A DNA stretch of 63,320 nt, counting the filler, from Sphacelaria rigidula (Eukaryota), in the NCBI GenBank assembly GCA_964200075.2. It is 7 parts of 7 records of this genome, joined end to end, with 100 filler letters (N's around TTAATTAATTAA, not from the genome) between each part and the next. Parts side by side here need not be neighbours in the genome. Positions count along the whole stretch, not along the records: positions 1 to 8,960 come from CAXNAA020009643.1; positions 9,061 to 18,020 come from CAXNAA020009644.1; positions 18,121 to 27,080 come from CAXNAA020009645.1; positions 27,181 to 36,140 come from CAXNAA020009646.1; positions 36,241 to 45,200 come from CAXNAA020009647.1; positions 45,301 to 54,260 come from CAXNAA020009648.1; positions 54,361 to 63,320 come from CAXNAA020009649.1. One strand, given 5' to 3'. The stretch's first letter is position 1, and every line of letters starts with the position of its first letter. The position numbers were made by a program, and so were the translations under genes. A model generated the notes under the pieces. It did not search any database, was not told the origin of the DNA, and was given only the letters and a program-made list of their open reading frames with translations. Positions 1 through 54,482 of this stretch are shown in pieces.

Positions 1-63
1 GGGATGCGTGGTCAATGGTCAAACGACTAAGGCAAGCAACAAATGAGTACGCCCCCCCCCCCC
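1..63 (+). mobile_element. 3' end of poly(C)-tailed non-LTR-like element (subfamily A)
   Basis: GGGATGCGTGGTCAATGGTCAAACGACTAAGGCAAGCAACAAATGAGTACG followed by a C-run. Identical or near-identical copies at 52115, 54210 and 54361 (minus). Confidence 0.75.
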
Positions 64-477
64 GGAGGGCCCTGCTGGAGGTGCCGTGTCGGAGACACGT
101 TTTTGCGCGATTTGGCTTCATTAGAGCTAAAAAATAAGATACATTTGGGGCAATTTTTCAAGGACCGTATGTAGCACACGTAGCCGGTAACGGCTTATAA
201 AGCCGGTAACGGTAAATAATGGTTTCAAACCATCATCCAAAAGTTTCATGTAACCATTACCATTATTACCATTATATTGATAATGGCCAGTTATAACTGG
301 CACCATATCCGAGCTCTACTAATCGAGGAGGACTTTCAGAACCCTTGTCCAAAATCACAAATAGGTGACAGCGGGTCTGAGAAGCCGAAGCCCTACCTTC
401 GCGCTACTCCCCGTGCTGGGTGTCCAGCGCTGTAGGAAGAAAATATGCGAAAAAAACGCCCAAATGAAATGGCTCAT

Positions 478-1082
478 GAGTGATGCTACAGTAGGGGTAC
501 ACGGATATTTTCGCAGGTTAAACTTGTTCGGAGCTATTTATCTCATCCCAAAACACGGCTGATGAAATGCTTCGTATATGAGAGTCTGTTGTCGTCCCAT
601 CTATTCTGGACGCCGGGCTACAACATTCGGTACATGTGGGCGCACCAGCCGGGGTCACACAGGAGGAATTCTATTTTTTCATTTTTCTAGTACTCCACCT
701 TTCTTCTGCGGTACTTGCCTTTTATTTTTCATCGCGTGAGGAGTTCAGCAGTCCCTTTTCCTCGTCGACCGTTCAGTCGAATATTGTGTACCTACGACAT
801 CGTCGCTCTCCACTGTTGGGCATGGTGTGGGAAAATATCCCAAATCGCCCCGAGATTTGAACCCACGACCCAACCGTGAGAAGGTTTCGACGCTTCCAAC
901 TGAGCCACCGGGGCGATCGGCAGAGTAAGCCAGGATTACTATTCCAATGTGCTAGAGATATCCAGAATGGATTTGCAAACGGGGATGTCCTGACCCATAT
1001 TTTTGTGCATCTAGTATCGTTGGGAGCCCTTGAACCAGACACGAATGTGCGCAAAAAATACACCCCTACCGTAGCATTTCTC
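478..1082. mobile_element. Sola2-like MITE family 1, interrupted by a SINE
   Basis: TIRs GAGTGATGCTACAGTAGGGGT...ACCCCTACCGTAGCATTTCTC with a 4-bp TSD TCAT on both sides. Internal sequence is homologous to the copies at 3310, 41167, 43607 and 46490. Confidence 0.8.
586..921 (-). mobile_element. tRNA-derived SINE (full length) nested in a MITE
   Basis: Minus-strand head GCCCCGGTGGCTCAGTTGG (A box) ... GGTTCAAATCTCGGGGC (B box). The body matches the copies at 28180 and 32580. AGAGT is duplicated at 581-585 and 922-926. Confidence 0.8.
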
Positions 1083-1109
1083 TCATAATCCGGATCAATA
1101 CAGTAGCAG

Positions 1110-1427
1110 GAAGTAATATTGAAGTAGCTCGTGACCTGTCCGACGCGTGAGATACGGTGGTATGAAATCATTCGGTGTATTCTTGAAGGTGATCGCGAGA
1201 AAAACGATCGCTAGACTGGGAGATGGATTGTGGCCACAGGCGGCGAAACAGGAAGGGGGTTTGAGATCATGTGAAGAAGGTTTTTGTGCAATGTATGGAA
1301 GAAACTTCTTGAGCGCCCAAAGGTCGGATGTGTCCCTGTCTCGAACGTTGCTCCGCCTCGAAAGGGATGCGTGGTAAATGGTCAAATGACCAAGGCAAGC
1401 AAATTATCACGCTCCTCCGTCCCCCCC
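1110..1427 (+). mobile_element. Longer, degenerate 3' fragment of poly(C)-tailed element (subfamily A) with an ORF C-terminal remnant
   Basis: Contains the shared GGGATGCGTGGT.AATGGTCAAA.GAC.AAGGCAAGCAA tail. Frameshifted peptide KTIARLGDGLWPQAAKQEG / FLCNVWKKLLERP...GCVVNGQMTKAS. The 5' boundary is approximate. Confidence 0.55.
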
Positions 1428-2605
1428 ATAGGATTGGCGTCGGTTGGCAACGATGCTGTAAAACACGCCACTCACTGCGTAAGCTAGGCAACCAGGTTAC
1501 CGTTTTTATTTGCGCTTGCGTTTTTGTTGCGGCGACCATGATGGTGGTCGAGCTATCAATAGATCATATCGTGCGGGATGGGAGAACCTCACTTGCGCAT
1601 AATGGGAATGGTCGTACTACGTGGTGTTTAAATGGTGAAACGCAAATGAGGCAGTGTTTAAGCCATGGCTATCTCTGACACCAGAAAATGAAGAATTCGT
1701 TTGAGGCTGTCATTCAAATGCAAGATAATCAGTACGCTTCGGGCCGGACAATCTTAGCAGGATGCAGCTCACCCTTTGTGCGACCTGCCGAACACATCAC
1801 GGCGCTTCGCGCTTGGTGATTGATTTCAAGCATGGTCCGGCGAAAACTCGGTGTGCTCCGTCCCGGCTCCGTAGGGATGCGAGGTAAATGGTCTTATGAC
1901 TACGAGCTGGGCCAGCAGTAAATCCCGCATTTGCATAGCACACCATAACATATCAAGTGTACCAAATCAGCCCGACTTGAATATATCGGTGTGACGTACA
2001 GACCAACGTGGTAACGCACGGGACCGCCGCTGATTGAAAGAAAAAAAAAAGCAAAGAAAATGTACTGCATAATGTATCACCTAACCGACGGAACAAAAAA
2101 AGGAATCCGTCGGGATTCGATCTCCTGACCTCCATAACTGGAGTCGACTGCATCACTTGGGTTAGAGGAGCGCAGTCGTGCCACACGAAAATTTGGATGC
2201 TGCGCCAAATTTCGGGAAATTTTGGCCGAAATTGTACCAGGGTTTCCTCCACACAAGGACGCACAACTACACCAGGGATGCCCCCGTGTTTCTTTATTTT
2301 CACGGAGCTATATACGTCGCATTTTTCTAGTTTTTGCAGAAACTCCAAATCGCTCTAACTTTTTTTTTTTGGCATCCCCGGGAAGGTTGTGCGTAGTGAT
2401 GATAAAAAATGTTGTGTCAAAATTTCAGCACCCAACACTTCGGATTACCCACCGCCCGGCCCGGATACATTCACAAATCACTGTCAGCTGGCCCTGCTCG
2501 TACGGAATGCAAGATCATGAATACATCGCCCCGCCTCCCCAATCGAAGTCAGTGGCCTCATGACTATGGCGTGGATGATCATGAGTACACCCCCCCGGCC
2601 TCCCC
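1428..2605 (+). mobile_element. Poly(C)-tailed element subfamily B, split by a MITE at 1903-2500, plus a second short tail copy at 2547-2605
   Basis: Homologous to 18121-18500 (minus), 38193-38370 and 8866-8960 (minus). Removing the MITE restores GGTCTTATGACTACGGAATGCAAGATCATGAATAC followed by a C-rich run. Confidence 0.7.
1903..2500. mobile_element. Tc1/mariner-like MITE
   Basis: TA|CGAGCTGGGCCAGC ... GCTGGCCCTGCTCG|TA. Homologous in the opposite orientation to 58726-59301. Confidence 0.75.
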
Positions 2606-3253: not shown

Positions 3254-3309
3254 CAAAATTGCTCGCCATGTTTTTGGTGTTCCAGAAACGCAGACAAACA
3301 GAAGAAGGG

Positions 3310-3566
3310 GAGTAATGCTACGGTAGGGGTGCACTTTTTTCGCGAAATTATGTCTAGTTCAGGGGCTCCCAACGGTTCTAGATGCACAAAATATGAGTCA
3401 GGGCATCCCCGTTTGCAAGTTCATTCGGGATATCCCCAGCACATTAAAGTATTAATCCTGGCGTACTTTCACATCTGTGCATATGTCGTGCTTTGCATGA
3501 GGTGAAGGACTCTTAACAATTCTAACCTCAGAAAATATTTATGCACCCCTACCATAGCATCACTCA
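3310..3566. mobile_element. Sola2-like MITE family 1
   Basis: GAGTAATGCTACGGTAGGGGTGCA...TGCACCCCTACCATAGCATCACTC with TSD AGGG on both sides. Confidence 0.8.
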
Positions 3567-8865: not shown

Positions 8866-8960
8866 AGGAAGGGTGTTCTCATGATCATGTATGTCATAGT
8901 CATGAGACCATTGACCTCACATCCCTACAAAGCCGGGACGGAGCACGCCGGGTTTTCGCC
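8866..8960 (-). mobile_element. 3' end of poly(C)-tailed element subfamily B
   Basis: Minus strand GGCGAAAACCCGGCGTGCTCCGTCCCGGCTTTGTAGGGATGTGAGGTCAATGGTCTCATGACTATG...ATCATGAGAACAC followed by a C-run. The contig ends inside it. Confidence 0.75.
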
Positions 8961-9060
8961 NNNNNNNNNNNNNNNNNNNNNNNNNNNNNNNNNNNNNNNN
9001 NNNNTTAATTAATTAANNNNNNNNNNNNNNNNNNNNNNNNNNNNNNNNNNNNNNNNNNNN
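8961..9060. other. Artificial contig linker N44-TTAATTAATTAA-N44
   Basis: Six-frame stop spacer, repeated every 9060 bp. Confidence 0.98.
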
Positions 9061-9131: not shown

Positions 9132-9681
9132 TTCTGCTATCCCTTATTTTGTGGCAGATTTTGACGCCTTTCTTGAGTCAAGAAACAATACTTCTTTCGA
9201 CAACCAAGGCTTATTTCTTTTCCAACTCGTGTCTTGAGAAGAGTGAATCTTCTGTGCTAAGTTAGCCCCCAAGAACAGCTCATGCCTGGTCAGTATTGCA
9301 TAACGTACATGACAACTGGTTCGGTGGGGTAATATTTTCCTACACGCCCCCCTGTAGGGTGTGGTGCCGTCTCCAAGAATCTCCAAAACTTGGCACCGAC
9401 ACTGCTGTTTTTCTAGTCGCCACAGTTCGATCTTCATGAGTTGTGATAAACCCATACATCCTTGAGTCCAGAAGCGTACCTTCATCAAGTGGGCCACCTT
9501 TATTTTCACAGCTCATTGAATAAGTCTGGTGGCCTAGTGACGTGGATTAGGAGTACCCCCACGCCCCCCCCCCCCCCCCCTCCCCCCGCCAAGCTTGGGC
9601 CGAATAAGGGAGGTTTATGTGCGATGCCTGGACTGAGAGATATGCCACCTGTTCATGATGATGCACGGGTTCCTTGACCAG

Positions 9682-18120: not shown

Positions 18121-18520
18121 CGCCTACTGACCACCTTGGATTTGGATGATAGCCTACAATGAGTTGCTTCATTTTCTGGTGTCGCCACTTCCAGAGACAG
18201 CCACGGCTTATACACTGCCTCGTGGGTATCTGACCATGTAAAACCCACGTAGTACGACTATCCCCATTGTGCGGAGTTGAGGTTTTCCCACGCCGCACAT
18301 CATGATCTAGCTCGACCACCATCATGGTAACCGAAAAAAAAAAAGCGCAGGCGCGCAAAACAAATCGTTAACTTGGTTGCCTCGCTTACGTAGTAAGTGG
18401 CGTGTTTTATAGCGCCATAGCCAAACGACGCCAACCCCATCGAGGGTCCGCCCCTACAAAGCCGGGACGGAGCACGCCGGGTTTTCGCCGGAGATTGCAC
18501 CGGGGGGGGGGGGGGGGGGG
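18121..18520 (-). mobile_element. Poly(C)-associated element subfamily B, internal part
   Basis: Homologous to 1428-1740. Its 5' side abuts a long C-run (G-run at about 18502-18520 on plus). The contig ends inside it. Confidence 0.7.
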
Positions 18521-32314: not shown

Positions 32315-32408
32315 TGTGTTGGCCTTCCTCCTGCGTGACCCCGGCTGATGTGCCCACATATTTTTGTACCGAAAGGTGGAGACTGGCGTCCAGAATAAAT
32401 GGGGTGAC

Positions 32409-32463
<55 letters not shown>

Positions 32464-32465
32464 AC
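32315..32465 (+). mobile_element. 3' part of the SINE with an expanded (CA)n tail
   Basis: CCTCCTGCGTGACCCCGGCTGATGTGCCCACAT...CGTCCAGAATAAATGGGGTGACAA followed by a long (CA)n. Confidence 0.75.
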
Positions 32466-32579
32466 GCATGAAAATTGCCCGCCATCCAGTTCGCGCCCTC
32501 CACGAAATCTCACTATTTTGCCGTTGCTTCGTTCGAGGACAGACACCTGTTACGAGTAAAAAATAGCTCTACAGTCACC

Positions 32580-32934
32580 CCGGTCGCCCCGGTCGCCCAG
32601 TTGGTAACCTCGAGACCTTTGACGGATGGATCGCGGCTTCGAATCTCGGAGCGATCTGGGATTTTCTCTCCCACAATGCCCAACAGTGGAGAGCGACCAT
32701 GTCGTGGGTACACAAAATTCGACTTGATGGCCGATGAGGGAAAGGGACTACTGCACCCCTCCCGCGATAAAAAGAACAGGCAAGCGCCGCAGAAGGAAGG
32801 TGGAAAACGAAAAACAAACAAACGAACAAACAAGTGCGTTGGCCCTCCTCCTGTGTAGCCCCGGCTGGTGTGCCCACATACACTGTATACCGCAAGGTAT
32901 AGACCGGCGTCCGGAATAGATGGGACGGACACAC
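32580..32934 (+). mobile_element. tRNA-derived SINE, full length
   Basis: A/B-box head, short (AC)n tail and a 9-bp TSD ACAGTCACC (32571-32579 and 32935-32943). Confidence 0.85.
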
Positions 32935-34894
32935 ACAGTCACCGCAATAATATGGCACCACCTCTTCTTCTTGACGTCTCACGTGGGCCGTCTGATTTGT
33001 TGAGTTGGCACTACATAATATCTTGTTCACTTTCTTCAAATCCAGCCGACATACACGATGAGGAAAGCGTTGGTGAAAACGTGCGTGTAGATACGATTAG
33101 ACACTATTATACTCATTATTACTGCAGGCTGCCTGACAGTGCTATCATCAATTAATTGTGTATTATAGTTTTAGACTGTAGTAGCTGAATGGTGGTATTG
33201 TACTCCTTTCTATTTCTAAAAAATGGGTGGGAGATGCACCCTGCCTGCCGCCTGCGGCAATGAAAGGGCTACTATTACCATTGTTCACAAGATACCAGCG
33301 GATCCTGAAAAATGGGTCGATCTCAAGAATGAGGTTCGCGTGGCATATCGTTTTTACAGGGATGACGCGTAACAGTAACACACAGCGAAAACATATTTCC
33401 CGTCAAAACTCTGCAACTGTGGATCATCAGTAGCTGTGGCTAAATGCACCGAACGACTGCGGTGTACGCGCGTGTCGATGACGATATCACCAGAGAGAAA
33501 AGCAACAACAGAGAGGAAGCTCCTCGCCCGTGTCCTTTGTGTGCCCTCACTGGGCGATTATCAATCGCTCGAGAGACTGGCATCATGCATGCTATCAGCA
33601 CGTACCGCATTTCTCATGTGCCGGTAGGTATCCCCAAAGAACATCAAGCTGCGGAGAGATTTCGTCTCTTTGTCCGTGGAGGTCACCAATGCGAAGATCG
33701 ATTTCTCTCCGCCTCTATTTTTGGACAGGACGCGCCTCTATGCGCTGAACAATAGGATAATATTCCCATCACCGCTACTACTGTTCTATGTCACACACAG
33801 GCCAGCAAGGACGGTGCGCTGCGGCAAAAATAACAGATTACTAAATTTGAACTGGGGGGGGGTGTTATTCATCGTTGATTTTCCCAACATGACGTATCTG
33901 ACCATCCCGACCACAGGAGCCTGCCACAGGCCAGTCGGGGTATGTGTGAGAGAGAGATCAAAAACTGGTGGAGACCTTCTTGACATGAGGAGTGAAAAAA
34001 GATACCTATGGTGTGACCGGACAGTTGCTAGCGTGGTGTAGAGGGGTGCGTCAGCTGCGATCTGGAGCTTTCCTGGCTCTACTCTACCGACTTCCATCCG
34101 CAGATCGTATCTCGGGAGGTCATACACGGTAACATTAATATGTTATCATGTCCCCAAAATCGGAACAATTACTTATGAAAACAAAACAGTTCGGTTTTCG
34201 ACACTACGTCCAGATCATTGAAATGGCTCTTCTTACCCGAGGGAAAGTGTCCGTTTTGGGCCCGGTCAAAAGTTCGAAGAAACTGTCGAACAGCACCACC
34301 AAACTTTGCTGGCATTAGCATCCGCCAATCAGTACAGTACGGAACACAAATCGACTGTTTAACGTTTTATTATTCTTACTATCTGAGTTTCGGAAACGAT
34401 GTTTTTTTCTGTCCGCGTTAATTTCTGAACAATTTGACAATTCCCCAAGACTCGCACTACTTACCTCATCCTTTTGAGCTTCGCATGTGTGGTGCGAGAA
34501 ACGAAGAGAGTTTAGAGGTCCTGACTTCATGAGATATATACCAGGCTGAGAAAAACCAGGCTGAGAAAAGAATCGCGTTTCCGAAACTCTCTATTGACCA
34601 ACTGAATAATGAGTGAGCTGTCGCTCTGGCTTCAAAAAAGGGTGAAGCAACTGGACGGGTATTAGTTGACCATATGAGCACCCCTTGTTTTCATCCGGTA
34701 GCCGTGGTCACAGCACGATCGAGTCAACTGGTTAGGTTTACTTGGACTGGAATAGTTCGCGGCGGAGTTAAATTGTGCTGAGTCAGCATAGCCCTGTACT
34801 GAACCAATGAAAGCAGGGTCCGACGTGGCGAAAACGTTCGTTAGTTATCATTTGTTTCTCGTTGTATCTGTTTATCACGATTTCTGTCTTCTGC

Positions 34895-35240: not shown

Positions 35241-36140
35241 CTAGCGTAACATGACAGTGGCGATTTGCTCTCAGCAGCACGTCACGACGCAACACAGGAA
35301 ACTCGACACAACAGCGATTTCAGTTTGTCTTTCATCCAGCCCATCCCTACTCCGCAGTATGTATGCGTTGGCACTGGTTGGCGATTAAAAAAGAACGCAC
35401 GAGTTCCTTAAACAAGCACATCGCCACTTATGTGATTCTCTCCAAGTGATGGGAGTCCTTATAGGCACTGTTTTTGCACCCCCGCTAGCTCACCAATCCT
35501 ATGAATGACGTGCTTTAATCGCAAGCTAAGGAAGCACTCCCTTTCAATGATGATCCCCACCCTTCGGGCAGTTTGTTTGCCAAAATGGTTCTCCATGCTA
35601 GCGCGTGAACGCATGATGCGCCGTACATTTGAAAGAGTAATCTCCGCCCCCTAGTTCCCGCTATTCATCTGGACGCTACATGTAGTCGAGGCATTTAAGC
35701 TCTACAGAGTTTCGAAGAGGCATTGGTCGGAGAATGACGACGTCGGCGTTGAGTCGATTTCTCATAAACAGCAATTGTCGCAGACTAGAGTGCCCTTGCA
35801 AAATAATCAGGGGTCACCTAAGCAGTGGTGCTTGGAAAATGATTGTGCGGCAAGCTATTTGATTATCGCGGTATCACTGCAGTTCATGGCACGGCTCGAC
35901 GTGGCGTGGGTGATAACAGCCAGTCATCGAAATGGATGATGGAGCTTTTCATCGAAGATGAGAACCCGGAGGATTAATATCTTTGTATCCACACCAAAGG
36001 TTTGAAATATGGTCCCATTTCTTCACCTGCTGATAGCTATTGGCCGGTACTACACGTCATGGAAAATTGGATTTCGAAAAGAGTCATCCTACGATAGGGG
36101 GGGGGGTATTTTGGGCCATTTGTTGCTCGAAATTCCGAGT

Positions 36141-37229: not shown

Positions 37230-38192
37230 CGGCCTCAGCTAACGAATCACTACGAATTTCGATGAAATCCTCGGGGTAGATTAGATTCGTCCGCAAAAAT
37301 ATTTGCGCGCAAGACAGACGTGTAAATTTCGCGCGCGTGTGTGTATGTGTGTGTGTTTTCGTTATATGAACATACCTGTTTGACTATTTTCATGATGTTC
37401 GAGTATGACACACGATTAGTGAGGCTTTTCACTATTATAATTTCAAAACATGATAGAAATGGAGATCAAAAGCAAAACACAGCGTGACGTGGCGTGACGC
37501 GACTTGATTCGACTTGACTGGACGACGTGACACTTTTTCTTTTTTTTTCAATTCCGCCTGCCAACAACACTACACGCAGCAGCGAAAAATCTGACTGCGC
37601 GCAGTAACCGTCTTGTTTGTCACTATTTTGAATTTCCGTTCTCAATTGAATGCAGGGTCAAGGCGGAGCTGCTCGCCAAGGGAATAAGCTAAAGGTGTAA
37701 ACGCCTCCGTACGGAAGAGTCGCTGCATCCCCCCCCCCCTTCCCCCCGCCCCCAGTTCAGTTTCGCGGGTGCCCCTGGCCTTCGTATGGAGTTTTGCTGG
37801 TGCAAAGGTCGCGAGTATTGCTGATAGGTGTACCGTGTGTCGTACTGATTGAGTCTTCGTGCAGACGTGTGTAGTCGAACTTCTTATAAAGCATTCGACG
37901 GTTGATATGCACGCGAAGTGAATACTCGCGTGAAGTGATTCGATTTCGACAATTTTTTCATTAATTTCGTCAAAAAAATCCACAGCATGAGTTTTTTTTT
38001 TTAATCGAAACGACACGCAACTCCACGCACGCACGCACGTCCTATCGATCCGTGCACTGCATGTTACAGACATTATGTACAGTAGCGCCCTGCTGTGTGC
38101 ACGTGGCATTTTTCGGAATAGTTTATTTCTAGCACGCCGGCGAGGGCACAAAATCAAGTTCGAGCGACTGTAGAAGCGAGCCCCCCCCCCCC

Positions 38193-38370
38193 AACATTAG
38201 TAGGATACAAATCACTTTTCTGCGGCTCGTCGAACACATCACGGCGGTTCGCGCTTGGTGATTACGAGCCCGGTCCTGCGAAAACCCGGCGTGCGCTGTC
38301 TCGCTGTGTAGGGATGCGAGGCCAATGGTCTTCACTACGGCATGCAAGATCATGAGTAGCCCCCTCCCCC
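38193..38370 (+). mobile_element. 5'-truncated poly(C)-tailed element subfamily B, with C-runs on both sides
   Basis: Begins directly after the C-run ending at 38192, aligns to 1750-1900 and ends ATCATGAGTAG followed by a C-run. Confidence 0.75.
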
Positions 38371-40429
38371 TCACACAGTCTAGTAGGACGTTGTTCTACT
38401 CTTTGACAAGTTATGCCCCCTCAAAAAGTGACTTTTGCGATATATCTGAGCGAACTGCACCGCAATGCTTTCTCCGGGCCATCGTTTGAATGTTTATGAT
38501 TGCTGTAGGGCTGGGAAGTTGTGTTCGCCATGATACTGTGTACAGTACCTATCCTCGTGGACATCCGCCATCCATTACAGGGTAGTAGTGGTACTACCTC
38601 TTGGTACTATTATTTGCCCTACGTCGGGTGTTGGTTGTCGATGGGGATGAGACTTGGCAATGACTATGGTCTGTTGGGCGTAGGGGCCAGTGGTGTTCAC
38701 TTTCACCCCTGCGGTGCCAGATGCTTTATAGATGGATGGTAGACGGAGCGCTCACTGGAGTACCGTGAAAAACAGTGGCTTTGGTTGAATGATATAGAGC
38801 AATGGAGGAGTTGGGAGTCACGTAAGATATGATATATGTTATCATCAGTAAGGCCGGAGCTGGCAAACGCGAAGAGGAGCTGCTCAGGGTATGTAGTGTC
38901 GCAATTTTTCCGTTGGAGGTCAGACGGAGGTGAATTCCCGGAATGAGTTCTGGCGCTCAAGGGGTTGAGTATCGATTGTTACGCTGATGCGCAGTACTGG
39001 GTACCGCATCTTTACAACCCAAACCCCCCCCCCGTGAACTACTCTGGACCTGAANNNNNNNNNNCTGAATGAGTTCTGGCGCTTAGGGGGTTGAGTTTCG
39101 ATTCTTACACTATTGGGCAATCATGGGTTCCCCCCCTCCCCCCCCCCCCCCGCCTCCCTCGACTGACTCGAGCAAGCATGTATATATTTGTTTGATTGTA
39201 CGGATATCTCTCTGTCTTTCTCGCAGTATCCAGCCGGTTCGGTTGATAGTGCGCGTGCGTGGTACTGGAAATAGCGACGAACACGATGTCGCTGTGTGTG
39301 TTATAGTGTGTGACTTGCTTTTTGGCGCCTTATGTGGTGTTGTTTTTGTTGTTGTTGTCGTTGTTGTCGTTGTTGTCGTTGTTGTTGTTGTTGGTGGTGG
39401 TGGTTGTGTTCATTGTTGTTTTCGAGCAAGGCACGTGATTCCCTTATTCTGTCGATTTTTGTGACCCTGGGTTGAGTCAAGTACAGTATGAGTTCGGACC
39501 GAAGCAGCGAGCAATAGCCTTGTGTTATTTTCCTCTTTTGTTTTTCGGGTATAGAGGGAAAACCAAATGATGAGGAGCCTGCCTATTGTCCGTTTCGTTG
39601 ACCACTGAGAACGACCTGGTTGTGTGTCATCTCTCATCGGATGATCCGGCATCCTCTCCACTTTATGAATGGATGAGTTTCAAGAAGTTGTCGCCCCCCT
39701 ACGGGTCTGTCTCAAAACGTCCGGAAACAAGGAATGCTGCGTACGGTATATGGAGAGGAGATCGATCATCGCGTATGCGCGCTGATTGCTGACTGTGCGT
39801 GATGGCTGAGCATCTTCATGCATGTCATTTTGACGACACTCTGTACCCACCCTATAATTTTTTTCCTCACCTGGAGTTGTTCTCGGAAATACCCACCTGG
39901 CACTGGGATTCTTCCACTTGTTTCCGGAGTTTTCTTCGAAAAAGTCGTACCACACAAAAACAATAGTACGCGTGCTAGAGTCGAAGAGAAAAGCTATCAA
40001 CAACGTTTTCGTGAGTTCGAGAGTAGAGCGCTGATCAAGAGTGGCTTCTGTAATTCGCTTTAACCCAGCCATTTTTTCGTCCCGTTTGTGATTTTATTTG
40101 CCTCCACTCGCGTGTGCTCACAGCTACACGTCGATATCTCACTCAGGGCTATCAAGGACCTCAGTTGCAAGGTATTATTACTACAGAAAGCATATCAGGC
40201 GTCGTGGAGGGGCATTTCGGAACTGAAACGACTCATTCACTAATTGACCGCTTTTCACTCTCAATCGTATCCTCTACTCTCAATCTCACGAAAACGTTGT
40301 TTATCGTAGCCTGCACCGTGATGGAAGCTTTCTGTTTCGTTGGATTGATGAAAAAGTGGAAAATCTGTCCCATGATGCCCGGGTGTCGATCAGTTCTTGT
40401 GCAAAGCACAATTAATCTACCCTTTTTGT

Positions 40430-40669: not shown

Positions 40670-40971
40670 TTTTGTGGAGAAAACTTGGAGGGTACGTTTT
40701 TTTTTCTTCACGAGGGCGGGCTAGAGGGTGTTTTCCACCGTAATACATGCACGGTGGGATATATTTCATCATGCAGTCTGGGTGCTGCTACGGATATGAT
40801 GCACGTCTGGACCGTCAAAGCACCCCTATTTTGTTCTTGTGGGGGGAAGTAGCAACACTACGTGACCCCAAAAAGTGTTTCCGGCACAAATGGGGCCAAC
40901 GCAAACAGGACCAAGCTGCGGAGTGCGCGGCGTCCTCTGATCGGTCATCATCCGGCACTTTTTTTACTTTT

Positions 40972-41684
40972 AACAGCCGATCATCGAAATCGAGGATGAA
41001 GCTTTTCATTGAGTGGATAAGGACCCGGAGGAGAGAAATCTTCGTACCCACGCCGAGTCTTCGAAATATGGTTCACTCCTCCACCTACTGGTAGCTATTG
41101 ACAAATACTGCACGTCATACAAATTTGGATTTCGATAACCGAAATAAATGTTGGGGTTGTGGATGAGAGTGATGCTACGGTAGGGGTACACCAATATTTT
41201 ATGAGGTTTGAGTTGTTAGGAGCCCTTTATCTCATCCCAAACACGACTTATGAAAATATGTGAGAGTAGGCCAGGATCACTATTCCATTGTGCTGGGGAT
41301 ATCCCGAATTAATCTGCAAACGGGGATGCCCCGACCCATATTCTTGTGCGTCTAGAATCGTTAGGAGCCCCTGAACCAGACAAAATTTAGCAAAAAAAGT
41401 GCACCCCTACCGTAGCATTGCTCATGAAAAAACTATTTTGGGGAATTCCGGCGATCCGATCGGATCACCTAAATTCCCCAAAATTATTTCCTCATCTAGG
41501 ACCCCAACATTTCGGTTATTGGATTCCAAATTTGTAGGGCGTGTAGCAGTTGCCAATGGCTACCAGTAAGTGAAGGAATGGAACCATAATATTTCGAAGA
41601 TTTGGTGTGGATACGAAGATTTTGATCCTCCGGGTTCTCATCCTCAATGAAAAGCTCCGTCCTCAATTTCGATGATCGGCTGTT
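40972..41684. mobile_element. Long-TIR (~185 bp) foldback element with AACAG termini, host to a Sola2-like MITE
   Basis: AACAGCCGATCATCGAAA...TTTCGATGATCGGCTGTT. Second copy at 49550-50015 and a partial copy at about 35925-36140. Confidence 0.75.
41167..41423. mobile_element. Sola2-like MITE family 1
   Basis: GAGTGATGCTACGGTAGGGGT...ACCCCTACCGTAGCATTGCTC with TSD ATGA on both sides. Confidence 0.85.
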
Positions 41685-42819: not shown

Positions 42820-44190
42820 TTTTCACGGGAAGACGGCATGGGACGGGACGGCATGGGACGGGACGGAAATCACCGTCCTTTCAAAGACGACGGAAGGAGG
42901 AGGAAATTTTCCCTGTTGCATCGAAAAATGACAGGACGGAACGGGGCACGGGGAACTTTTGCTATATGTCGGGACGGGACAGGGCGGGAAGTATCCCCCT
43001 GAAAACACGACGGGACTAGACGGGATGAGACGGGACGGGAAGGAGTAATACCGTCCACTGAGATTCCCGTCCCGTTTCGGCTCGTTTCCACGTTGAAATC
43101 AAGGTAATCCCTTAAATTCCTAAAATAATGTATGCGCTGGGGCAAAAAATTCGTGAAGACGATGCCTTCACACATCGGTAAACACAAACATTTAAATAAT
43201 ATTGCGTTATTCCCACCAGCAGCGGGCGGCAATAACGATTAACTTGAAGCACGGCAGCAGCAACCAGCGACACGGCAGACCCTTACCAAGCAGTGTATCC
43301 GAATATAAACTCCAAGACGGGAAAAGCGCAAATGAACAAGGGTCACTAAGCAGTACATGCTGCTGAAATACTGCACATATCAACTAATCCCTCCAGCTAT
43401 GCGCAGGTACAACAGCAGGACCGTTGAGTGACCCAAGGAGCGCTGAAGCCTTTTTTATACATTTTTTTTCTGCAAGTGACATGCCTCGAATATGACAAAG
43501 GTCCGGACGTACTTCGAACTCGAAATACATTCAATTTCCCATGAGAGACTGGATGGGAATTCCCGTTCCATTGACGGGAAGTTTCGGAGGGACATAATGA
43601 AGTGTCGAGGGATGCTACGGTAGGAGTGCACAGACATTTTCTGATATAGGAATTATTAATAGCCCTTTACCTCATCCAAAACACGACTTATGAAATATGT
43701 GAGTGTACGTCAGGATTACTATTCTAATGTGCTAGGGATACCCCGAATGAAATTGCAAACGGGGGTGCCCTGACCCATATTCTTGTGCATGTAAAATCTT
43801 TGGGAGCCCCTGAACCAGACGAGATTCCGCGCAAAAACTGCAACCCTACCATAGCATTGCTCTGTCCCGTGAAGTACTATATCAGAAACTAGCCACCATT
43901 CATGTCCCGTGAGGAGACGGAACAAAAACGGGGAAAACGGGAAAAGGGTACGGGACGGGACTTTTCTTTCTCCCCTCGAATACGGCGGGACGGGATGGAG
44001 GTTTTCGCCGTTGCTAAAAACTGCCCGAACAATAACGGGGTGGGGCAGGAAGTTGAGAGTTGTCGGGGCCGGACGGGACGGAAGTGTCTCCCTGAACAAA
44101 GAAGGAGATGCGAGGGGGAATCCGCTCCCTGAAGAAGGACGGGACGGGATGGGACAGGAAAATCCGTCCCGTTCCGTCGTTTTCCCCGTG
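42820..44190. repeat. GGGAC/GACGG motif arrays in both orientations, probably DNA transposon subterminal repeats
   Basis: Clusters at 42825-43090 and 43905-44190. Boundaries are approximate. Confidence 0.5.
43607..43862. mobile_element. Sola2-like MITE family 1
   Basis: GAGGGATGCTACGGTAGGAGTGCA...CCCTACCATAGCATTGCTC with TSD TGTC on both sides. Confidence 0.85.
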
Positions 44191-45300: not shown

Positions 45301-45563
45301 AAGGCAAGCAACAAATGAGTACCCCCCCCCCCTTCCCCCTGCCTATGTCAATGGTCTAATGACTATGGCATGCATGATCATGAGTACACCCCCCTCCCTA
45401 TGCCTCTCAAAAACCCGGCGTGCTCCGATTCTGCTTTGTATGGATACGGGGCCAACCATCTCGTGACTACGATATTCAAGACCATGGGTACACCCGCCCC
45501 CCCCCCCCCCACCCGTCCAAGTGCGTACGTATGAGGTATGAGTACCCTCCCCCACCCCCCCCC
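45301..45563 (+). mobile_element. Head-to-tail stack of four poly(C)-tailed 3' ends
   Basis: Four segments each ending ATG(A/G)GTAC followed by a C-run, with tails near 45322, 45388, 45493 and 45545. Confidence 0.75.
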
Positions 45564-46489
45564 GCCATACCCAACTGAGCCGGACGAGCACAAGTTGACA
45601 GCCAAACAAGCAATGCACACGGAAGCACAGCAATGGCCATGCGCAGTAACGTCATCATGGGGCGGTCATGGTAGGGCTGAAGAGGCAGGGGCGGCGCTGC
45701 CATCGGGGGGTGTGCCACGGTGGCGTCGGGTCCGCCGCTCATCTGTCGCGTTGGAGTCGGTGGAGTCGCGAGCTCAAAAAAAGGATAGGCAGATGTGGAA
45801 GATCATCACTTTCATTGTTCGACGGACACCATGGCTTCAGTGATGATGTCTCTAAGCTGTACATAGTGGGAACGGGACAGTGGGACTGAAAGTTTCTAAG
45901 TTCGTGAGGCCACTGTGCGTGGATGGTGCAAGTAGTGTCCGGTGGTGAACACATTCTATCCTTCCCAAAATGTGAAATCGCAGGTGGTGGTCATAGATGG
46001 GCATGCTGTGCCAATTGTGCACTAGGCATACACACTGACGGCAACTATCTATGCCGCAGGCGTCAATCGTTATCCGGCCCGCGCTGGCCGTGACGTCTCG
46101 AAACGATGATTCCTTCATACTCGGGTCCTAGACTCCTGCGCGAGAAACTGGAGGACATCGCAGCAGCGGGGGGTGGCTCGCATGGGGAGTCGAGGGATGA
46201 TGCAAGGAGCACGGACCGGGCTCCGGCCAAGGTACCGGTTATGCCGGTTGGTGATGGACGTATGACGGTCACCATGCGGGCGATGCAGCAGCCAGTCGAG
46301 GAGAAAAAGTCATATTTACACACATTGTCGTCATATTGTAGGCAGCACTGGGTCTGTGCATTCCCTTAGCTGATTACAACAAGCAGCAATGCTGATGTTC
46401 GGGGTTGCCCATTGTTCAATTTGAAAATGGGCACGAAAAACGCGACGAGAAAAACTCCATTCACGTCTCGAAAGTGAATAGATGGAGAT

Positions 46490-46747
46490 GAGCAATGCTA
46501 CGGTAGGGGTGCACTTTTTTCGCGAAATTATGTCTAGTCCAGCGGCACCTAACGATTCTAGACGTACAAAAGTGTGGATCAGGACATCCCCGTTTGCAAA
46601 TTCATTCGGGATATCTCCAGCACATTGGAAATAGTAATCCTGGCGTACTTTCACATGTTTTCATAGGTAGTGTTTTGCATGAGATAAAGGGCGCCTAACA
46701 ATTCTAACCCCAGAAAATGTTTCTGCACTCCCACCGTAGCATCACTC
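46490..46747. mobile_element. Sola2-like MITE family 1
   Basis: GAGCAATGCTACGGTAGGGGTGCA...TGCACTCCCACCGTAGCATCACTC with TSD AGAT/GGAT (one mismatch). Confidence 0.8.
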
Positions 46748-47489
46748 GGATGAGAAACGCGCTCGTTCGGAAAACGAGGGGAAACGTGAAAAAATGTGAC
46801 AAAGAGCCCCTTTTTCATACTCAAAACTGGCGCTCAAGGGGATGCGATCCTCCGAGCCTGCAGTTGGTAGGCCCCCTTGGCAGAACAGTCGACTTGAAAC
46901 AACTGTGGAGAATTTCAAAAGCACGAGGCAACGGGCGACAAAGAATTACGTATGGAACACCTTATCTACTGTATCCAACCCCCTATTCCGTGTTTGGGGG
47001 TAGTCGAGACACCGCACTGTTCCGCCAGAACTACGCCCGACCACCCTGTCAGTCAGAGAGAGGTATGGTATGGGGAATCGTCAACCTCATATTGTATTTT
47101 GAACTTGTCAACGTCCGCCTGTAATCCTCCCCAATATCCCCCGCGATATGGCCACAATTACATAGAGCGCAAGATGTTGTGCAAAGATTCGTGCTTTGAC
47201 TGTGTTCAACTTGGCACCTGTGTGGTTGGATCGATCAAGTGTCACGTCGTCGAGGGCGCGTGGGAGTATTTTGTATGATAGTCTTTACACTAACCGCGAC
47301 TTTCAGACGCGTGGTTGAGTCGTGGGTCGTGGAATTTGTCGATGTGGGCGCGTCTTGAAGTACTGTTGACACGAAAAACCTTTTCCCTCTACACCTTGAA
47401 CTGTATGACAGTTCTACCCCAGGGAAATATTTCGTCCCGAATTTCACAAGTGGCTCTATTTCAGGTAGAAGATTATGTTATCGCCCTGC

Positions 47490-50120
47490 AACTTTCATCT
47501 GGGATGTAGTATCCCCCAGGGATATCCACTTACATCCGAGGTATCCGTATCCATCTGCGATATCCATCTGGGATATGGATATCCACGTAGGATATCTGAG
47601 TCCATCCATGGAATACTCATCAGGGATATTCACAGCTATCTGGGATAATATCATGTTCATCTGGAATGTCCATCCGGGATATGAATATCCACTTGGGAAA
47701 TACCAGATGGATCTGAAATCCCAGATCGATCTAAAGTCTCAGATGGACATCCCAGGTGGATCCGAAATTCCAGACGGATATCCCGAATGGATATCACAGG
47801 TGAAAATCACAGGTGGATATCCCAGTGCCAATTATATCCCACATGAACATCATCGACGGATAATCACGTGTATGGGATATCGATACCCCATCTAACAGGC
47901 GATCCTGGTCATGGGAACGAAAGTTTGATATGGGAACGAACTGAGGTCGAAATTGCATGTTATATTGCAACCGATCATGTAAAATCTGCGTGGATCATCA
48001 ACGTTGACGCGGAACCTCCATACGAGACCACGGTTAGTCTGTATCTTTTATATGAATACCCTGGAGGATATCCAAGATAGATATACCAGAAGATGGACCT
48101 CATGTCTCAGATGGATATCTCAGATGTACAGTACCTCAAGCTCAAAGTAGGGTATTTGGTAATTTCTTCGTAATCGGCGATTCTTTCGCATGCCACCGCT
48201 CATCACATTAAGAATTCCAAGAAAAAAAAAATCTGTATTGAATACTGAGTGACTGACGGGCTGACTGGTCATCGGGGGTCCTGTTACAGACAGAATGGTT
48301 GGTAGCCCCTCTGGCTTGTCCGTGCACTAGTTCGTTCTTACTACTGTCTCAATTGTTGTGGTTATCATGATCGCTGCGCAAGCGCTGTGATGGCGGATCT
48401 TCACAAGACGGGGCATGACGTGAAATTTCCTACTTCAACCAAACATGCGGCATATTTATCCATGTACAGTGCAGTATGCACTGATTTGTACGTACTCGCT
48501 CACCATCATCGCAGCGCAAAACGGTTTTCCAGCGCAAGAGATGATCAGTTTAACGCAGAACAGCTAATCCTGAATGTCAGGGTGTCTTGATCACAGCTTC
48601 AGGCGATAGTATTTCTCTTTTGTGGCGGTGGCTTTGATAGCCTCATCAATACATTTACATGAGCTCTCAGCTCGTTTTTGTGCCCGTGAAGAGAGTAAAA
48701 CCAAGGGTCGCACCGGGTCATGCTACCACGGCGCGCACGGAGGCGTGTCTGTAACCATCACAACGGACACCACTCCCTCTCCTCTAGTTGGAAGACCCGT
48801 AGGTTACATTAACTAGCCCTCCGAGTCCGTCAGTCGGAAAGCTGGGCTCATCCTCGTATTACCCTCCCACCATTACGCCGTGACTCATAACAGTCCTGCC
48901 ACTTTTTCAGCCGCGGATTCTGATGCTTCGATATTTTCGGTTGATCGAGCCTGTCCCGATTGTATTTGTGAAGAAATGGACAGTCTTGTTTTATTCAAGT
49001 TCTACCTACTCATCGTACTAGAGCCGAAAAACTGTGTGTTCACGGTCAAAAACACCTTCCTGATAAACGCGGTACCTACTCGTATCGTCCGATAACACCA
49101 ACTAGCAATAACTTGGGCACTGACTGTGTTTTCAGAAAGATTTGTTTATTTTACGATAATTTACCGACGCTAGCACTTTCGAGTTCTATCGAAGAGTAGT
49201 ACACGAGAAACCACCCGAAAAGACCCAGGTACTTTGAACTTGAGGAATAAATGATATATAAGATGGACATCCCAGATGGATATATGGCATCTTAGATGGA
49301 CATCGCAGGTGGACACGTATATCCATCTGGGATATGACTTTCCAGATGGATATCGCAGATGGATACCATTCAGTCTGGAATAGCCACCTGAGATATGACT
49401 TTCCAGATGGATATCATAGATCGATAAATCTGTAAGATGGACATCCCAGATGGATATCACAGATCGATAAATCTGTAAGATGGACATCCCAGATGGATAT
49501 ATATATCCCCAGATGGATGTCGCAGATGGATACCATTGCGTCTGGAATAAACAGTCGATCATCGAAAGTGGGGATGGAGTTTTTCATTGAGGATGAGAAC
49601 ACGGAAAATTAAAATCTTCGCGTCAACATCAAATCTTCGAAATATGGTTCCATTTCTTCACCCATCATCATCATCATCATTCCTTCACCTACTGGTAGCT
49701 ATTGACAACTGCTACGCGCGCTACAAATTTGGATCTCGATAACCGAAATGTTGGGGTCTTGGATTAAAAAAATCGGGGAAATTAGGTCATCCGATCGGAT
49801 CGTGGAAATTCCCAGAAATTGTTTTTCATTTATGACCCCAACATTTCGGTTATCGAAATCATGATTTGTATGGCGTGTAGTACTTGTTAATAGCTACCAT
49901 TAGATGAAGGGATGGACCCATATTTCGAAGATCTGGTGTGGATACGAAGATTTTAATCCTCCGGTTTCTGATCCTCAATGAAGAGCCCCATCCTCAATTT
50001 CCATGATCGGCTTTTAATAGCCGTCTGAGATATGACTTTCCAGATGGATATCACAGGTGGGAAAAATTATGATATCCCAGGCGGATATTCCAGGTGGACA
50101 TGATATCCCAGATGGAAATT
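47490..50120. repeat. CCAGATGGATATC motif arrays at 47490-48130, 49250-49545 and 50020-50120
   Basis: Degenerate short units, inverted at 47490-47700 and forward thereafter. There is a ~43-bp tandem duplication at 49406-49491. Confidence 0.65.
49550..50015. mobile_element. Long-TIR foldback element with AACAG termini
   Basis: 4-bp TSD AATA. The empty site CTGGAATAGCC is visible in the paralogous array unit at about 49375. Confidence 0.8.
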
Positions 50121-51060: not shown

Positions 51061-52114
51061 TATAACAGTTCTTTTTCTTAGTCCGGTACTTTGTGGTTTC
51101 TGACAAAATGCAACCGACCAACGGGACAGCAACGTATTGTCGGGCCCCAGAAAACCAAGATTATAAAAGCGGTGATGGACACGAATGCGTAATGTTGCTA
51201 GATCGGACAATCAGATCAAGTTTGAATTTCCGAATATGTTACCGACGGCGCCAGTTTTGAGCATGTAGGTAGCCTAGTACAGTAGAGATGTGCTCCGCTC
51301 CATCCACTCCGGATGTCCTCTCCGTTCGACTCCAATCCTATTAGTGCAGGGTTTTGAATGTGCTGCAGCCAGAGCAAACCATGAAGGCTGTGACCTTCAC
51401 ACGGTACGTGATTGTTTGATGCGAGATGTTTACATCTTCATGTGCCCTGGAGCGGGTGATATACTGCAAGTGCTGCATGAGTGGAGGTGAGCTGCAAGCA
51501 GTGCATTACAGCGTCTCATGCGACAATTCTGATGTAAACGCATACCTGTAGCAGTACCAATCCAACAAGGATGAGGGGCTTCATGTGTGCGTAGTCTCCT
51601 CCAGTATTTTCATTTCAGTAGGTAGTACGATGCTTGTTTGGGTACGTGAACTGCTTGCTCAACATCATCTGACTGTCACCGTATTTACCACCCTCTCCCG
51701 AAATCGTACCGTGGCCAACTCTACAGATTTCACGAAGCAGCTAGCCGCGAACGTACTGTGATACATCTGTGGAACATATTCAAAGCTATTCCCCCGAAGA
51801 TTTGTCGCTCGATTCTACGCACTCCAGCGCAAACCTGCTGACGGGATACGTCGCAAACAGAGCGAAACCGCTGATAGTACAGCCGAACCGAAGTCATCTT
51901 CCACCCTGACGAGCGCTTCAGATGGATGTTGCGGTGTTGCGGTTTCGTATCAGCTGGGCTAAAAATTAGGAGAGGCGCATCCCCTGCAATGTGGCATGTG
52001 CGGTATGATATAAATCACCGAAGCCGACAAACAAATGGGGTCCGTTTTTGTCGCCGCTAGGCAAGGGTACACGAACAAAGGCACACCGCACACATCCCCC
52101 CTCCCCCCCACACC

Positions 52115-52164
52115 CAATGGTCAAACGACTAAGGCAAGCAACAAATGAGTACGCCCCCCCCCCC
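52115..52164 (+). mobile_element. Severely 5'-truncated poly(C)-tailed element (subfamily A) with a TSD
   Basis: CCCCCCCACACC|CAATGGTCAAACGACTAAGGCAAGCAACAAATGAGTACG(C)n|CCCCCCCACACC. Confidence 0.8.
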
Positions 52165-52299
52165 ACACCCCGCGAGGGCCGAAGTCGATTTTGTTTTTAT
52201 CTTGTTCACATCTCTGTTTCCTCGTTGTATTTCCCCCCTCAATCCGTGTGTTCACTGCACGTTACCCCTCAAGCGCATTCTAGATACCTACTTGTTGGA

Positions 52300-54160
52300 A
52301 ACACCTATATGCTGATGATGCTACATGCTGACGGTGGCACGCTTGGCTTGCTTCAACACTCGTGGTTGGGGACGATCCCCGACCGAAAACATCTCCTGCA
52401 ACAGCGATTGCCTCCCGAGTTGCATGGCGAGGATTGCCAAGTCAAAAAAGTTCACCCCTATTGCGTCATTTGGCGCTGTACGTACCGCTCACCGCCTGGT
52501 CTAGCTTGTGCAAGATGGCGTTTCACCTCACAGACAAGCCGTCTCGCTGCAACTGACCCGTTGACGTTCGAACACCACACACGTCATGGTCTGCCAAGTA
52601 AATGAAGATGCGCTTGGCGAGTGCCAAGCGACGATGGGAAACTTTCCACTTTTCCTGACATGTTCCAGGTTGGAGAGCTTCTACACTTCAAACCTTCCCT
52701 TCAACCTGCGCAACGTTCCTCGTCTTTGGTATGGAGAAAATACTCTAGAGCAACGATATTTGCCCCCCTCGTGCTCTGCCTCCAGCGCTGATCGCTGAAT
52801 CAAGCCTGCTCGGAGACGGAAAAAGCGCAGAGGACACACCGCTTGTGAGGAAAAAAAAATCTGAAGCGAGGGTGCGCTGGTGCGGGACATTACGAACAGA
52901 ACTCCGATGCGTATCCAACGTCAAAGGATGACAGCAGCCCTCGAGTGTTGCAAGTGCGTTCTACGTGACAGTTTCATCCTAGGTGGCCTCACCTCTGGAA
53001 GCGCTCGTGTACTTCATGTCCATGCACGGGGTACATGTTCCTCCTGCTTGTTCCATCGTCACTGCACATCCTGTGCTCGGGGTGCCGCGGGAGACGATTG
53101 CCGTTGCATGAAGGAACATGCGATTCGGATATACCCGAGCCTCCATCGACACTCCCTGGTTGGCGGTACCATGCAGGCCGACGGTTAGTTTGGATGAGAA
53201 CAGGCTCCCGGACCTCCGGAGATAGTCCCGCGCAGTAGGTAAGGGGTTGAGCACGCGTCTCAGGCAGCATGGCGGGGGGGGCACTGTCGTTGCCTGCCTT
53301 GAACCCTCCTTCAACGTTAGAAATGTACTTTGTCAATCCCACTGTCCGCGCTGGCACCACCTTCAGGCCTGCTCGGAATTCCCTCCGGAAGCACATCAAA
53401 GTCTCTTCCCGCGCCCACACTACTTCTGGCCTCCGTCACCACCGTTGACCCCTTCGCGGCGTCTTTGATGCTTGCAGCTGGCAACAGCTAGAAAAATGAC
53501 AACGTTGTGGTGTTCGTCGCCGCCGCTTGAACAGCTTGCCTGGCGATGTGATCAATATCAGTTGATCGGCCGCTCTAGAGAGCTCCAAAATGTTCTGTGG
53601 ACTCTTTTTCAAATGCATTGGAGCGGGAGGGGTAGCGTCTTTAGCTTCGTACACGGCGCAATGTGCGTGCAGCGGCGACGATATGCAACGGGTGACAAAA
53701 AGAAATACGAACTCTCCATAATGTGTAAAAAATCTACAGCATCTGTGTCGCCGTTGGTTGGAGTCCTCGTGCCGCTACATGTGCGTTCGGCTCCATCTCT
53801 GTAGATCAAATCCCAGATCTCTCACGCACTTGCAAGGCCACTTGCCACTCCTGCCTCTCGTGATGATTCTTGCTACAGCCGTCGCTGCACTGCTCTCGTG
53901 GGTAGTATTGCACTTGTTCATGCTGCCGCCACTGTTCATGCGGCGCTGGTTCACGAGGCAGAGGATGCGCGCCATGAACACAATCAAGTCTTCACTTCCC
54001 TGTACTCACTCCTTGTGCTTCTCGGAAAGCTCATGCTGCGCCTCGGCTGCATCTTCTCCGGAACCCTCGCCGAAGCTGTGCCCGCAGAAGCGACTCACAC
54101 CGGACTATCGAATGGCTTCTGGCAGACGCGCTGCAGCCAGGCCTTTTCATCGAAGGGGGC
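52300..54160 (-). pseudogene. Possible decayed coding relic (LTR-retrotransposon gag-like?)
   Basis: Stop-riddled minus-strand peptide AEAQHELSEKHKE*VQGSEDLIVFMARILCLVNQ loosely recalls copia gag helices. No diagnostic motif is seen. Confidence 0.2.
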
Positions 54161-54190
54161 GAGGGTTATGTCTCCCCCCCCCCCCGGAGG

Positions 54191-54260
54191 CTCTTGCTCC
54201 GTCTCGAAAGGGATGCGTGGTCAATGGTCAAACGACTAAGGCAAGCAACAAATGAGTACG
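54191..54260 (+). mobile_element. 3' end of poly(C)-tailed element (subfamily A)
   Basis: Preceded by a C-run plus GGAGG. The last 51 nt are identical to window positions 1-51. Confidence 0.8.
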
Positions 54261-54360
54261 NNNNNNNNNNNNNNNNNNNNNNNNNNNNNNNNNNNNNNNN
54301 NNNNTTAATTAATTAANNNNNNNNNNNNNNNNNNNNNNNNNNNNNNNNNNNNNNNNNNNN
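54261..54360. other. Artificial contig linker
   Basis: N44-TTAATTAATTAA-N44. Confidence 0.98.
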
Positions 54361-54482
54361 GGGGGAGGGCGGGGGGGGGATACTCATTTGTTGCTTGCCT
54401 TAGTCGTTTGACCATTGACCACGCATCCCTGTCGAGACGGAGCAAGAGCAAGCAAGCAGGGGGGGATGGGGGGGGGGGGGGG
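54361..54482 (-). mobile_element. 5'-truncated poly(C)-tailed element (subfamily A), with C-runs on both sides
   Basis: Minus strand: C-run, then GCTCTTGCTCCGTCTCGACAGGGATGCGTGG...AAATGAGTAT, then C-run. Confidence 0.8.

Follow-up and report, generated by a model that had tools for sequence, protein, structure and literature searches.

The DNA analysed here, referred to as the window, is a 63,320-nt stretch from Sphacelaria rigidula (assembly GCA_964200075.2). It is composed of seven 8,960-nt pieces and six N/TTAATTAATTAA spacers, the first of which begins at 8961, and its position 1 is position 1 of contig C9643. The window contains dispersed copies of two types of repeat, designated family A and family B, on both strands. 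Self-BLAST and direct reading reveal a constant 3′ end, ATG(A/G)GTAC or a variant, followed by a run of C (C-run). Searches of the whole genome covered a 244-Mb assembly in 27,214 contigs, in which 26-27-nt patterns of the family A and family B tails have 2,955 and 2,038 exact matches, respectively, and none when reversed. Dispersed copies with this fixed 3′ end had been described in the initial annotation, which these results confirm. Family A is very probably an autonomous long interspersed nuclear element (LINE) of the RTE-X type, related to RTEX-1_Ec32 of Ectocarpus, and family B its non-autonomous passenger, the counterpart of RTEX-N1_Ec32.

Family A and its non-coding partner

Longer genome copies of family A translate, upstream of the tail, into reverse transcriptase (RT) motifs and post-RT regions. 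A 180-aa piece of this open reading frame (ORF) matched 26 proteins, including P0003 (1,360 aa) and P0005 (1,328 aa). Both carry the Pfam domains Exo_endo_phos and RVT_1 above cut-off (RVT_1 E 1e-30), and their C-terminal peptide is the one encoded by the family A tail. An ORF with RT and endonuclease (EN) upstream of the tail, as expected in the initial annotation for a LINE-like family, is found in genome copies. The closest named homologues come from Ectocarpus, in keeping with a brown-algal host. Ectocarpus proteins are 63-72% identical to family A over the post-RT region, one of them with a nearly identical C-terminal peptide, and the 90% cluster of P0005 includes two Ectocarpus proteins.

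Family A spans ~6.0 kb and consists, from 5′ to 3′, of a C-run, a short 5′ head, a ~2-kb leader, a single APE-RT-zinc-knuckle ORF (~1,360 aa), and a C-run. The stop codon lies 5 nt short of the element end. Copies measure ~5.8-6.1 kb, such as L152 (6,064 nt) and L158 (5,840 nt). The 5′ head is common to five copies, lies about 1.5-2.2 kb upstream of the ORF, and stands directly behind a C-run in all five. Part of the leader (L152, L158, L164, L169, and L163) is taken up by an array of ~63-nt tandem units whose number varies. The metagenome contig L234 contains a stop-free frame of 1,361 codons and a C-run tail; its motifs are GSWN, GDFN, TDH, QAGFR, FLDV, QGV, FADD, YLG, and C-x-C...H...C. Of the metagenome loci whose end can be seen, the close relatives L233, L234, L235, and L237 all end in C-runs, and L232 and L242 end in an A/T-rich repeat and (CTA)n, respectively. 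For the endonuclease region, the genome yields 154 matches (best E 1e-117). Of 20 genome stretches chosen for holding such a match, 11 reach from close to the ORF start to close to the ORF end, each time in several pieces.

Family A has neither long terminal repeats (LTRs) nor terminal inverted repeats. It displays a constant 3′ end, 5′ truncation, a simple-sequence tail, and a variable target-site duplication (TSD). DNA transposon, LTR, and Penelope readings were discarded because the EN-RT ORF extends to the 3′ end.

Family B is 560-563 nt long and has no match to the family A ORF protein. The last ~65 nt are common to the two families, with ~80% identity over the last 52 nt, and positions 68-104 of family B resemble the heads of five family A copies at 81-85%. 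The first ~50 nt of family B duplicate its own -105 to -50 region. A short form of ~100 nt starts at the duplicated motif, as do, by eye, 12 of 32 long matches, which were picked by best score and are hence biased to long copies. The 27 copies away from contig edges comprise 14 of 27-53 nt, none of 59-73 nt, seven of 94-107 nt, two of full length, and four others. The two subfamilies of the initial annotation are real as sequence types, one being an autonomous LINE and the other an element of its own that does not code for protein.

The 5′ head of family A (L169, ~745-790) and positions 68-104 of family B can each be drawn as a hairpin whose loop complements a GCCAC further downstream, which may form a pseudoknot. 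A ribozyme or small-RNA origin was sought in Rfam, and no match was obtained for the 5′ head or for family B, the latter neither above the gathering score nor with the E limit relaxed to 10. A short interspersed nuclear element (SINE) in the strict sense has a head derived from tRNA, 5S, or 7SL RNA with a Pol III promoter, and no such head was recognised in family B by these Rfam comparisons.

Insertion junctions and the structured 3′ end

Junctions were sampled from 90 distinct family A tails, the first listed genome matches (L001-L030 and L171-L230). Of these, 70 were usable for the 5′ junction and the TSD; the other twenty were excluded because they met a contig edge, contained Ns, or had too short a flank. 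At least six C occur in the 8 nt behind the tail in 75/90 (window background 0.9%). Within 25 nt upstream of the 5′ junction, CCCC is present in 53/70, compared with four for GGGG, eight for AAAA, and four for TTTT (window background 7.5%). A TSD, defined as an exact repeat of at least 7 nt with at least four non-C bases, was found in 31/70 copies and in 13/700 mismatched pairs used as a control. Eighteen of the 31 TSDs start with two or more C, which supports G:C priming as a mirror of the A:T priming of L1. Empty paralogous sites were informative for 2 of 77 copies (L171 and L184). They represent independent targets, each with a short C-run; the remaining rows are mostly the same locus or nested copies.

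The C-runs on the two sides of the 31 TSD copies do not differ systematically in length. The 3′ run is longer in 14, equal in four, and shorter in 13 (sign test p = 1.0). Among the 13 TSD copies with at most four C upstream, eight have at least seven C downstream (e.g., L175, L176, L219, and L224). A, T, or G often interrupts the tails, a feature also of genomic C-runs. Some copies (L006 and L024) have a TSD and no C tail, which suggests that a short stretch of microhomology to the element end may be enough. Judged by the junction, TSD, run-length, and empty-site counts, family A inserts into C-runs that are already there; it duplicates them and in some cases makes them longer. The TSDs and the C-run enrichment at 5′ junctions and empty sites had been anticipated, and the reading of a C-run-priming LINE system is upheld.

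Additional features were observed at some junctions. A TATCGTAGGATGAC-like motif stands behind the C-run at several insertion sites (L006, L122, L133, L142, L172, and L234) and at 36080-36106 (-) in the window. Its recurrence suggests that the C-run end of another repeat family (35912-36080, 40967-41157, and 49850-50020) is a frequent target. Inverted tail pieces at some 5′ junctions (L211, L226, and window 54445-54460 (-)) may reflect twin priming, fold-back, or head-to-head insertion. TTAGGG repeats lie between the target duplication and the truncated copy at L006:1440-1465 and L033:~2290-2320. Telomere-repeat capture as a general feature of 5′ junctions was rejected, with genome pattern counts of one in the expected and one in the opposite orientation.

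Exact genome counts along family A pile up at the 3′ end and fall upstream, as predicted. The size distribution is sharply peaked: 45 of the 70 usable copies end 59-73 nt from the 3′ end, with a mode at 64-66 nt. The exact counts drop from 2,611 at -64 to -40 to 383 at -88 to -64, a drop partly confounded by the lower conservation of the upstream coding sequence. Contigs of four public runs with four organism labels break into C-runs at the same ~65-nt boundary; 16, 19, 89, and 34 contigs share the main break position, and one run may be the source of this genome. The runs were located with three sampled words and say nothing about host range or expression. The cutting of most family A copies to about 65 nt seems to be a new feature, apparently not found in print.

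At the RNA 3′ end is a two-hairpin structure, and the ~65-nt boundary is located about 4 nt past it. The structure was aligned over 12 ends from family A, family B, L235 (from a 51-57%-identical family), and L232 (a 37%-identical relative). Two-sided compensatory changes occur in 6 of 14 pairs, a number reached in none of 500 shuffles, and each depends on one sequence (L232 or L235). Pairing is kept in 96% of cells in the hairpins and in 29-48% in slid controls. The folding energy of the 3′ 65-70 nt is no better than that of shuffles (z -0.93, -0.89, +0.16, and -0.55), and the two-hairpin structure is thus supported by covariation and not by single-sequence folding. A closing stem proposed by hand (columns 4-6 with 60-62) was rejected, as it displays no two-sided change and RNAalifold prefers another partner. 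In the ENA proteins P0028-P0049, which are 42-47% identical, a GCVVNG-like C-terminal peptide is kept, as would be expected if the 3′ RNA element constrains the nucleotide sequence.

Copies in the window

The copies in the window are listed in Table 1. Contig edges set the 5′ limits of the copies at 1, 8875-8960, and 45301 and the 3′ limits of those at 18121 and 54260, so that five window copies are cut in total. The variable 5′ truncation noted in the initial annotation is real in interior copies but not at these three 5′ ends. Thousands of C-flanked copies are likewise located at many contig breaks of this assembly. All five 5′ C-runs named at the outset were recovered: G19 at 18502-18520, C12 at 38181-38192, a C-rich stretch before 52115, C12 at 54174-54185, and G-runs at 54460-54482.

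Table 1. Family A and B copies and associated features in the window.
Feature	Position	Strand	Evidence
Family A 3′ end (last 50 nt) and C12; 5′ side cut by contig start	1-63	+	100% to 3′ end of near-full-length copy L152
Old family A fragment, ORF end, without last ~11 nt	1162-1402	+	Residues 1281-1358 of P0003 by tblastn; A copies at 74-77% over 1200-1402
Family B copy without first ~53 nt, starting in C-run	1422-1902	+	81% to B copies over 493 nt
Insertion in B copy, neither A nor B, with inverted ends and TA duplication; MITE-like (resembling a miniature inverted-repeat transposable element)	1903-2500		Junction sequences
3′ remnant of interrupted B copy	2501-2524	+	Sequence reading
Short B-type tail and C7	2548-2595	+	87.5% to last 32 nt of B
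Family B 3′ end (86 nt) and C-rich tail; 5′ side cut by contig end	8856-8960	-	89% to B
Faint tail-like stretch, end GAGTAC and C-rich run; membership unproven	9520-9588	+	Reading; C-run alone matched A/B references
C19, then 5′ part of family B; contig edge truncates 3′ part	18121-18520	-	85% to B positions -553 to -188
C12, last 171 nt of family B, C-rich tail	38181-38370	+	78% to B
Separate small repeat, then C-rich run; membership unproven	39067-39157	+	39067-39131 vs 38941-39005, 81.5% over 65 nt
Family A last 22 nt and C11; 5′ side cut by contig start	45301-45332	+	BLAST to A and reading
Family B last 41 nt and C-rich tail, directly behind C-run of preceding copy	45347-45398	+	83-90% to B
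Diverged family B 3′ end (~82 nt) and C14	45410-45510	+	78% to B
Short stretch with end ATGAGTAC and C-run; family not assignable	45511-45563	+	Reading; no BLAST match to references
Family A last 38 nt, flanked on both sides by target duplication (C-run and ACACC)	52096-52170	+	100% to A; flanks read
C12, then family A copy of ~66 nt, the modal short length; tail truncated at contig end	54174-54260	+	100% over 65 nt
C-runs, ~65-nt family A copy, C9 tail	54371-54482	-	98% over 64 nt

Three assignments of the initial annotation were revised. The stretch 1428-2540, taken as one copy, is a family B copy (1422-1902 and 2501-2524) split by the element at 1903-2500. The copy placed at 1110 matches family A over about 1162-1402, but not before 1162, and lacks the last ~11 nt. 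Faint relatives had been proposed at about 9520 and 39065; BLAST of 9520-9556 and 39067-39131 gave no element-body match to family A or B reference copies, and their membership is unproven. The element at 1903-2500 is ~600 nt long with inverted ends of ~15 nt, has a relative at 58997-59303 (70.8% match), and may be of the Tc1/mariner type, judging from the TA duplication.

The window contains 34 C/G runs of at least 8 nt, of which 10 are no more than 30 nt away from the end of a core copy (~0.5 expected) and 24 have no adjoining core copy. The suggestion that the element generates the G/C runs of the genome agrees with the TSD copies that gained C behind a short upstream run, but not with the overall run-length comparison or with these 24 runs. 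It is only partly supported, and family A need not be the main source of C/G runs in the genome.

The sequence C12 plus GGAGG precedes the copy ending at 54260 (54174-54190) and follows the copy at 1 (52-68), as in one split insertion. A coincidence or a common target is as likely, because the window pieces seem to be just sorted by length. Other dispersed repeats of about 260 and 350 nt, some with inverted ends, are unrelated to families A and B (473-1083, 3297-3565, 41167-41425, 43606-43863, 46477-46748, 32315-32937, and 28229-28896). A 474-codon open frame at 61529-62953, rich in Ser, Gly, and Pro, is probably a host exon.

Insertion model and related elements

Following the established chemistry of target-primed reverse transcription, the ORF protein would bind the two hairpins that the final ~65 nt of the RNA contain, and its endonuclease would nick the G-rich strand in or beside a G-run. 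The G-ended 3′-OH would pair with the C-rich RNA end and prime reverse transcription, a mirror image of the pairing between a T-run and poly(A) in L1. A second nick may fall a few to ~15 nt beyond the run, so that the duplication would contain the C-run plus unique bases. The C residues of the tail would most likely derive from read-through into the C-run of the donor and from RT slippage, which may sometimes extend a short run. Most family A events would stop just past the structured element, yielding the ~65-nt copies. The 65-nt peak probably marks the minimal RNA recognition element, and the template requirements of the RTE-X protein are then directly testable.

The short copies could also originate from a discrete short RNA, either a processed or nuclease-protected 3′ fragment of family A or a self-propagating mini-element, rather than from RT drop-off on a full-length template. 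The sharp mode, the drop in genome counts across -64, and the breaks of the public contigs at this boundary are in keeping with such an RNA. Family B, which uses the same RT and 3′ hairpins, lacks copies in the 59-73-nt class but has a class at 94-107 nt. T occurs at position -27 in 19 of 48 short copies and 2 of 24 long ones (p = 0.006). This difference hints at lineage structure but is confounded, as part of the long set was gathered in other searches; the same T is present in the long coding copy L233. Moreover, the 5′ ends are scattered over 59-73 nt instead of falling on a single base, part of the lower upstream count may reflect less conserved coding sequence, Rfam yielded no promoter or ribozyme, and RNA ends cannot be read from contigs. 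On balance a discrete short RNA is rather unlikely to be the source. Its extended form is a doubtful proposal, in which the ~65-nt two-hairpin module, deeply conserved and overlapping the ORF end, is a promoter-less, tail-only retroposon that persists, or is set free, as a separate short RNA and has been retrotransposed alone thousands of times. Two parts of this proposal are just as tentative: that the module is G:C-primed at homopolymer runs, with its C-run specificity a brown-algal retargeting, and that distant members of the lineage keep the module with A/T-rich microsatellite tails. If true, a ~65-nt retroposon made of the tail only would duplicate and sometimes lengthen C-runs.

In the model of G:C priming at C-runs, the RNA contributes C to the tail. 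Alternatively, the tail may be target-site duplication only, with an RNA whose 3′ end lies near GTACG(CC), which would need no more than a short microhomology for priming and would contribute no C. The lack of a net 3′ excess of C and the copies with a TSD but without a C tail fit this explanation, which the gain of C in most of the copies with few C upstream makes improbable; homopolymer lengths are also subject to assembly error and later slippage. C-adding nucleotidyltransferases are known enzymes, and tailing of a compact tRNA-like 3′ fold by such an activity would account for the C gain of some copies and the structured end. It is very unlikely, given the A, T, and G interruptions that tails share with genomic C-runs and a predicted fold of two hairpins, not a cloverleaf, with no Rfam match. 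Edge-cut window copies and the 20 excluded tails might raise the suspicion that the C-run association is an assembly or microsatellite artefact, or that the repeats are DNA transposon or LTR ends. This idea is refuted by the excess of C on one strand at either junction of interior copies, the TSDs, the EN-RT ORF reaching the 3′ end, asymmetric coverage, the absence of terminal repeats in family A, and the same kind of C tail in four independent metagenome contigs, and has almost no probability left.

Several points weigh against the assignment of families A and B to a C-run-priming RTE-X system. Under the criterion used, 39 of the 70 usable copies have no TSD, and a few of the 31 TSD calls (e.g., L025 and L217) overlap a neighbouring element copy. 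The C-rich 3′ end of the RNA is one that we infer. Every family A copy examined in this genome is broken. The clade label is provisional and is based on agreement with the Ectocarpus table and on sequence motifs, not on an RT phylogeny; the post-RT motifs of the ORF are presumably RTEX-like, and none of 291 ORF homologues searched carries an RTE or RTEX label. The likeness to Ectocarpus RTEX was drawn from the table description and Ectocarpus proteins, not from aligned consensus sequences, and family B is shorter than the 604-607 nt given there for RTEX-N1.

In mammalian L1 and Alu, a homopolymer tail pairs with a nicked complementary homopolymer, copies are 5′ truncated, and the variable TSD starts with the homopolymer. 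The pairing is A:T there and C:G here, and family A differs in its conserved structured 3′ element, single ORF, and non-L1-clade architecture. RTE LINEs and SINEs also have a common 3′ end (Nishiyama and Ohshima 2018, PMC6007223). According to the parts of that study covered, the first TSD base correlates with the simple repeat at the 3′ end and a homopolymer stretch marks the target. Families A and B share the common 3′ end and the homopolymer-marked target. The RTE signature, however, is a T stretch ~10 nt upstream of the TSD with microsatellite tails, whereas the TSD itself starts in the C-run here.

The RTE-X clade has been described with a separate ORF1, which includes an esterase in some members (PMC3905857, as far as covered). 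One long ORF was found in family A; a separate ORF1 is not defining for the Ectocarpus RTEX families, because those are also annotated with a single ORF. RTEX-1 has been named in Saccharina, with no tail details in the part covered (PMC4421812), and further context for the clade is given in the portion covered of PMC5753468.

The closest known system is that of Ectocarpus sp. 7, as annotated in the covered parts of Dinatale et al. 2025 (PMC12477816, Supplementary Material 3). RTEX-1a, -1b, and -2_Ec32 have a single EN-RT ORF, a length of 5.5-5.9 kb, '(C)n' 3′ ends, and a 'C-rich' TSD. RTEX-1b has 3,007 copies over 1.06 Mb and is thus mostly short. Family A is alike in ORF, 3′ end, TSD, and its many, mostly short copies, but is somewhat longer and degenerate in all copies examined. 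The non-autonomous RTEX-N1a/b_Ec32 (604-607 bp) have a 60-bp 3′ end 83% identical to RTEX-1/2, weak homology to the 5′ end of RTEX-2, and a C-rich TSD, and can be in tandem; RTEX-N2_Ec32 is a 188-bp non-autonomous partner. Like RTEX-N1, family B is non-coding, ~600 nt long, and shares ~60 nt of 3′ end and weak 5′ homology with its LINE; a C-rich TSD and frequent tandem arrangement are further common traits. Its end duplication and ~100-nt short form are not mentioned for RTEX-N1 in the table. Ectocarpus RTE-1/-2, with (CAA)n tails, and CRE-1, with a (CA)n tail and the order RT-EN, were excluded as the type of family A by the C-run tails and the EN-RT order.

The initial annotation had put forward a poly(C)-tailed family as possibly novel. 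This suggestion fails, because the matching Ectocarpus RTEX group is already annotated with (C)n ends and C-rich TSDs, a prior description having been named at the outset as refuting it. Families A and B are very probably a further member of that group, whose family type and C tails are recorded in one supplementary table. The covered parts of PMC12477816 give no insertion mechanism, 65-nt truncation peak, or 3′ RNA structure for RTEX, and no other account of C-tailed LINEs or of the 65-nt peak was found in the literature searched, with Repbase and subscription journals outside the search. Compared with the Ectocarpus annotation, what is added here is modest and comprises statistics on the junctions, a covarying module at the 3′ end, and the peak at 65 nt. 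The family A endonuclease provides a natural test case for a change in the target preference of the APE domain.

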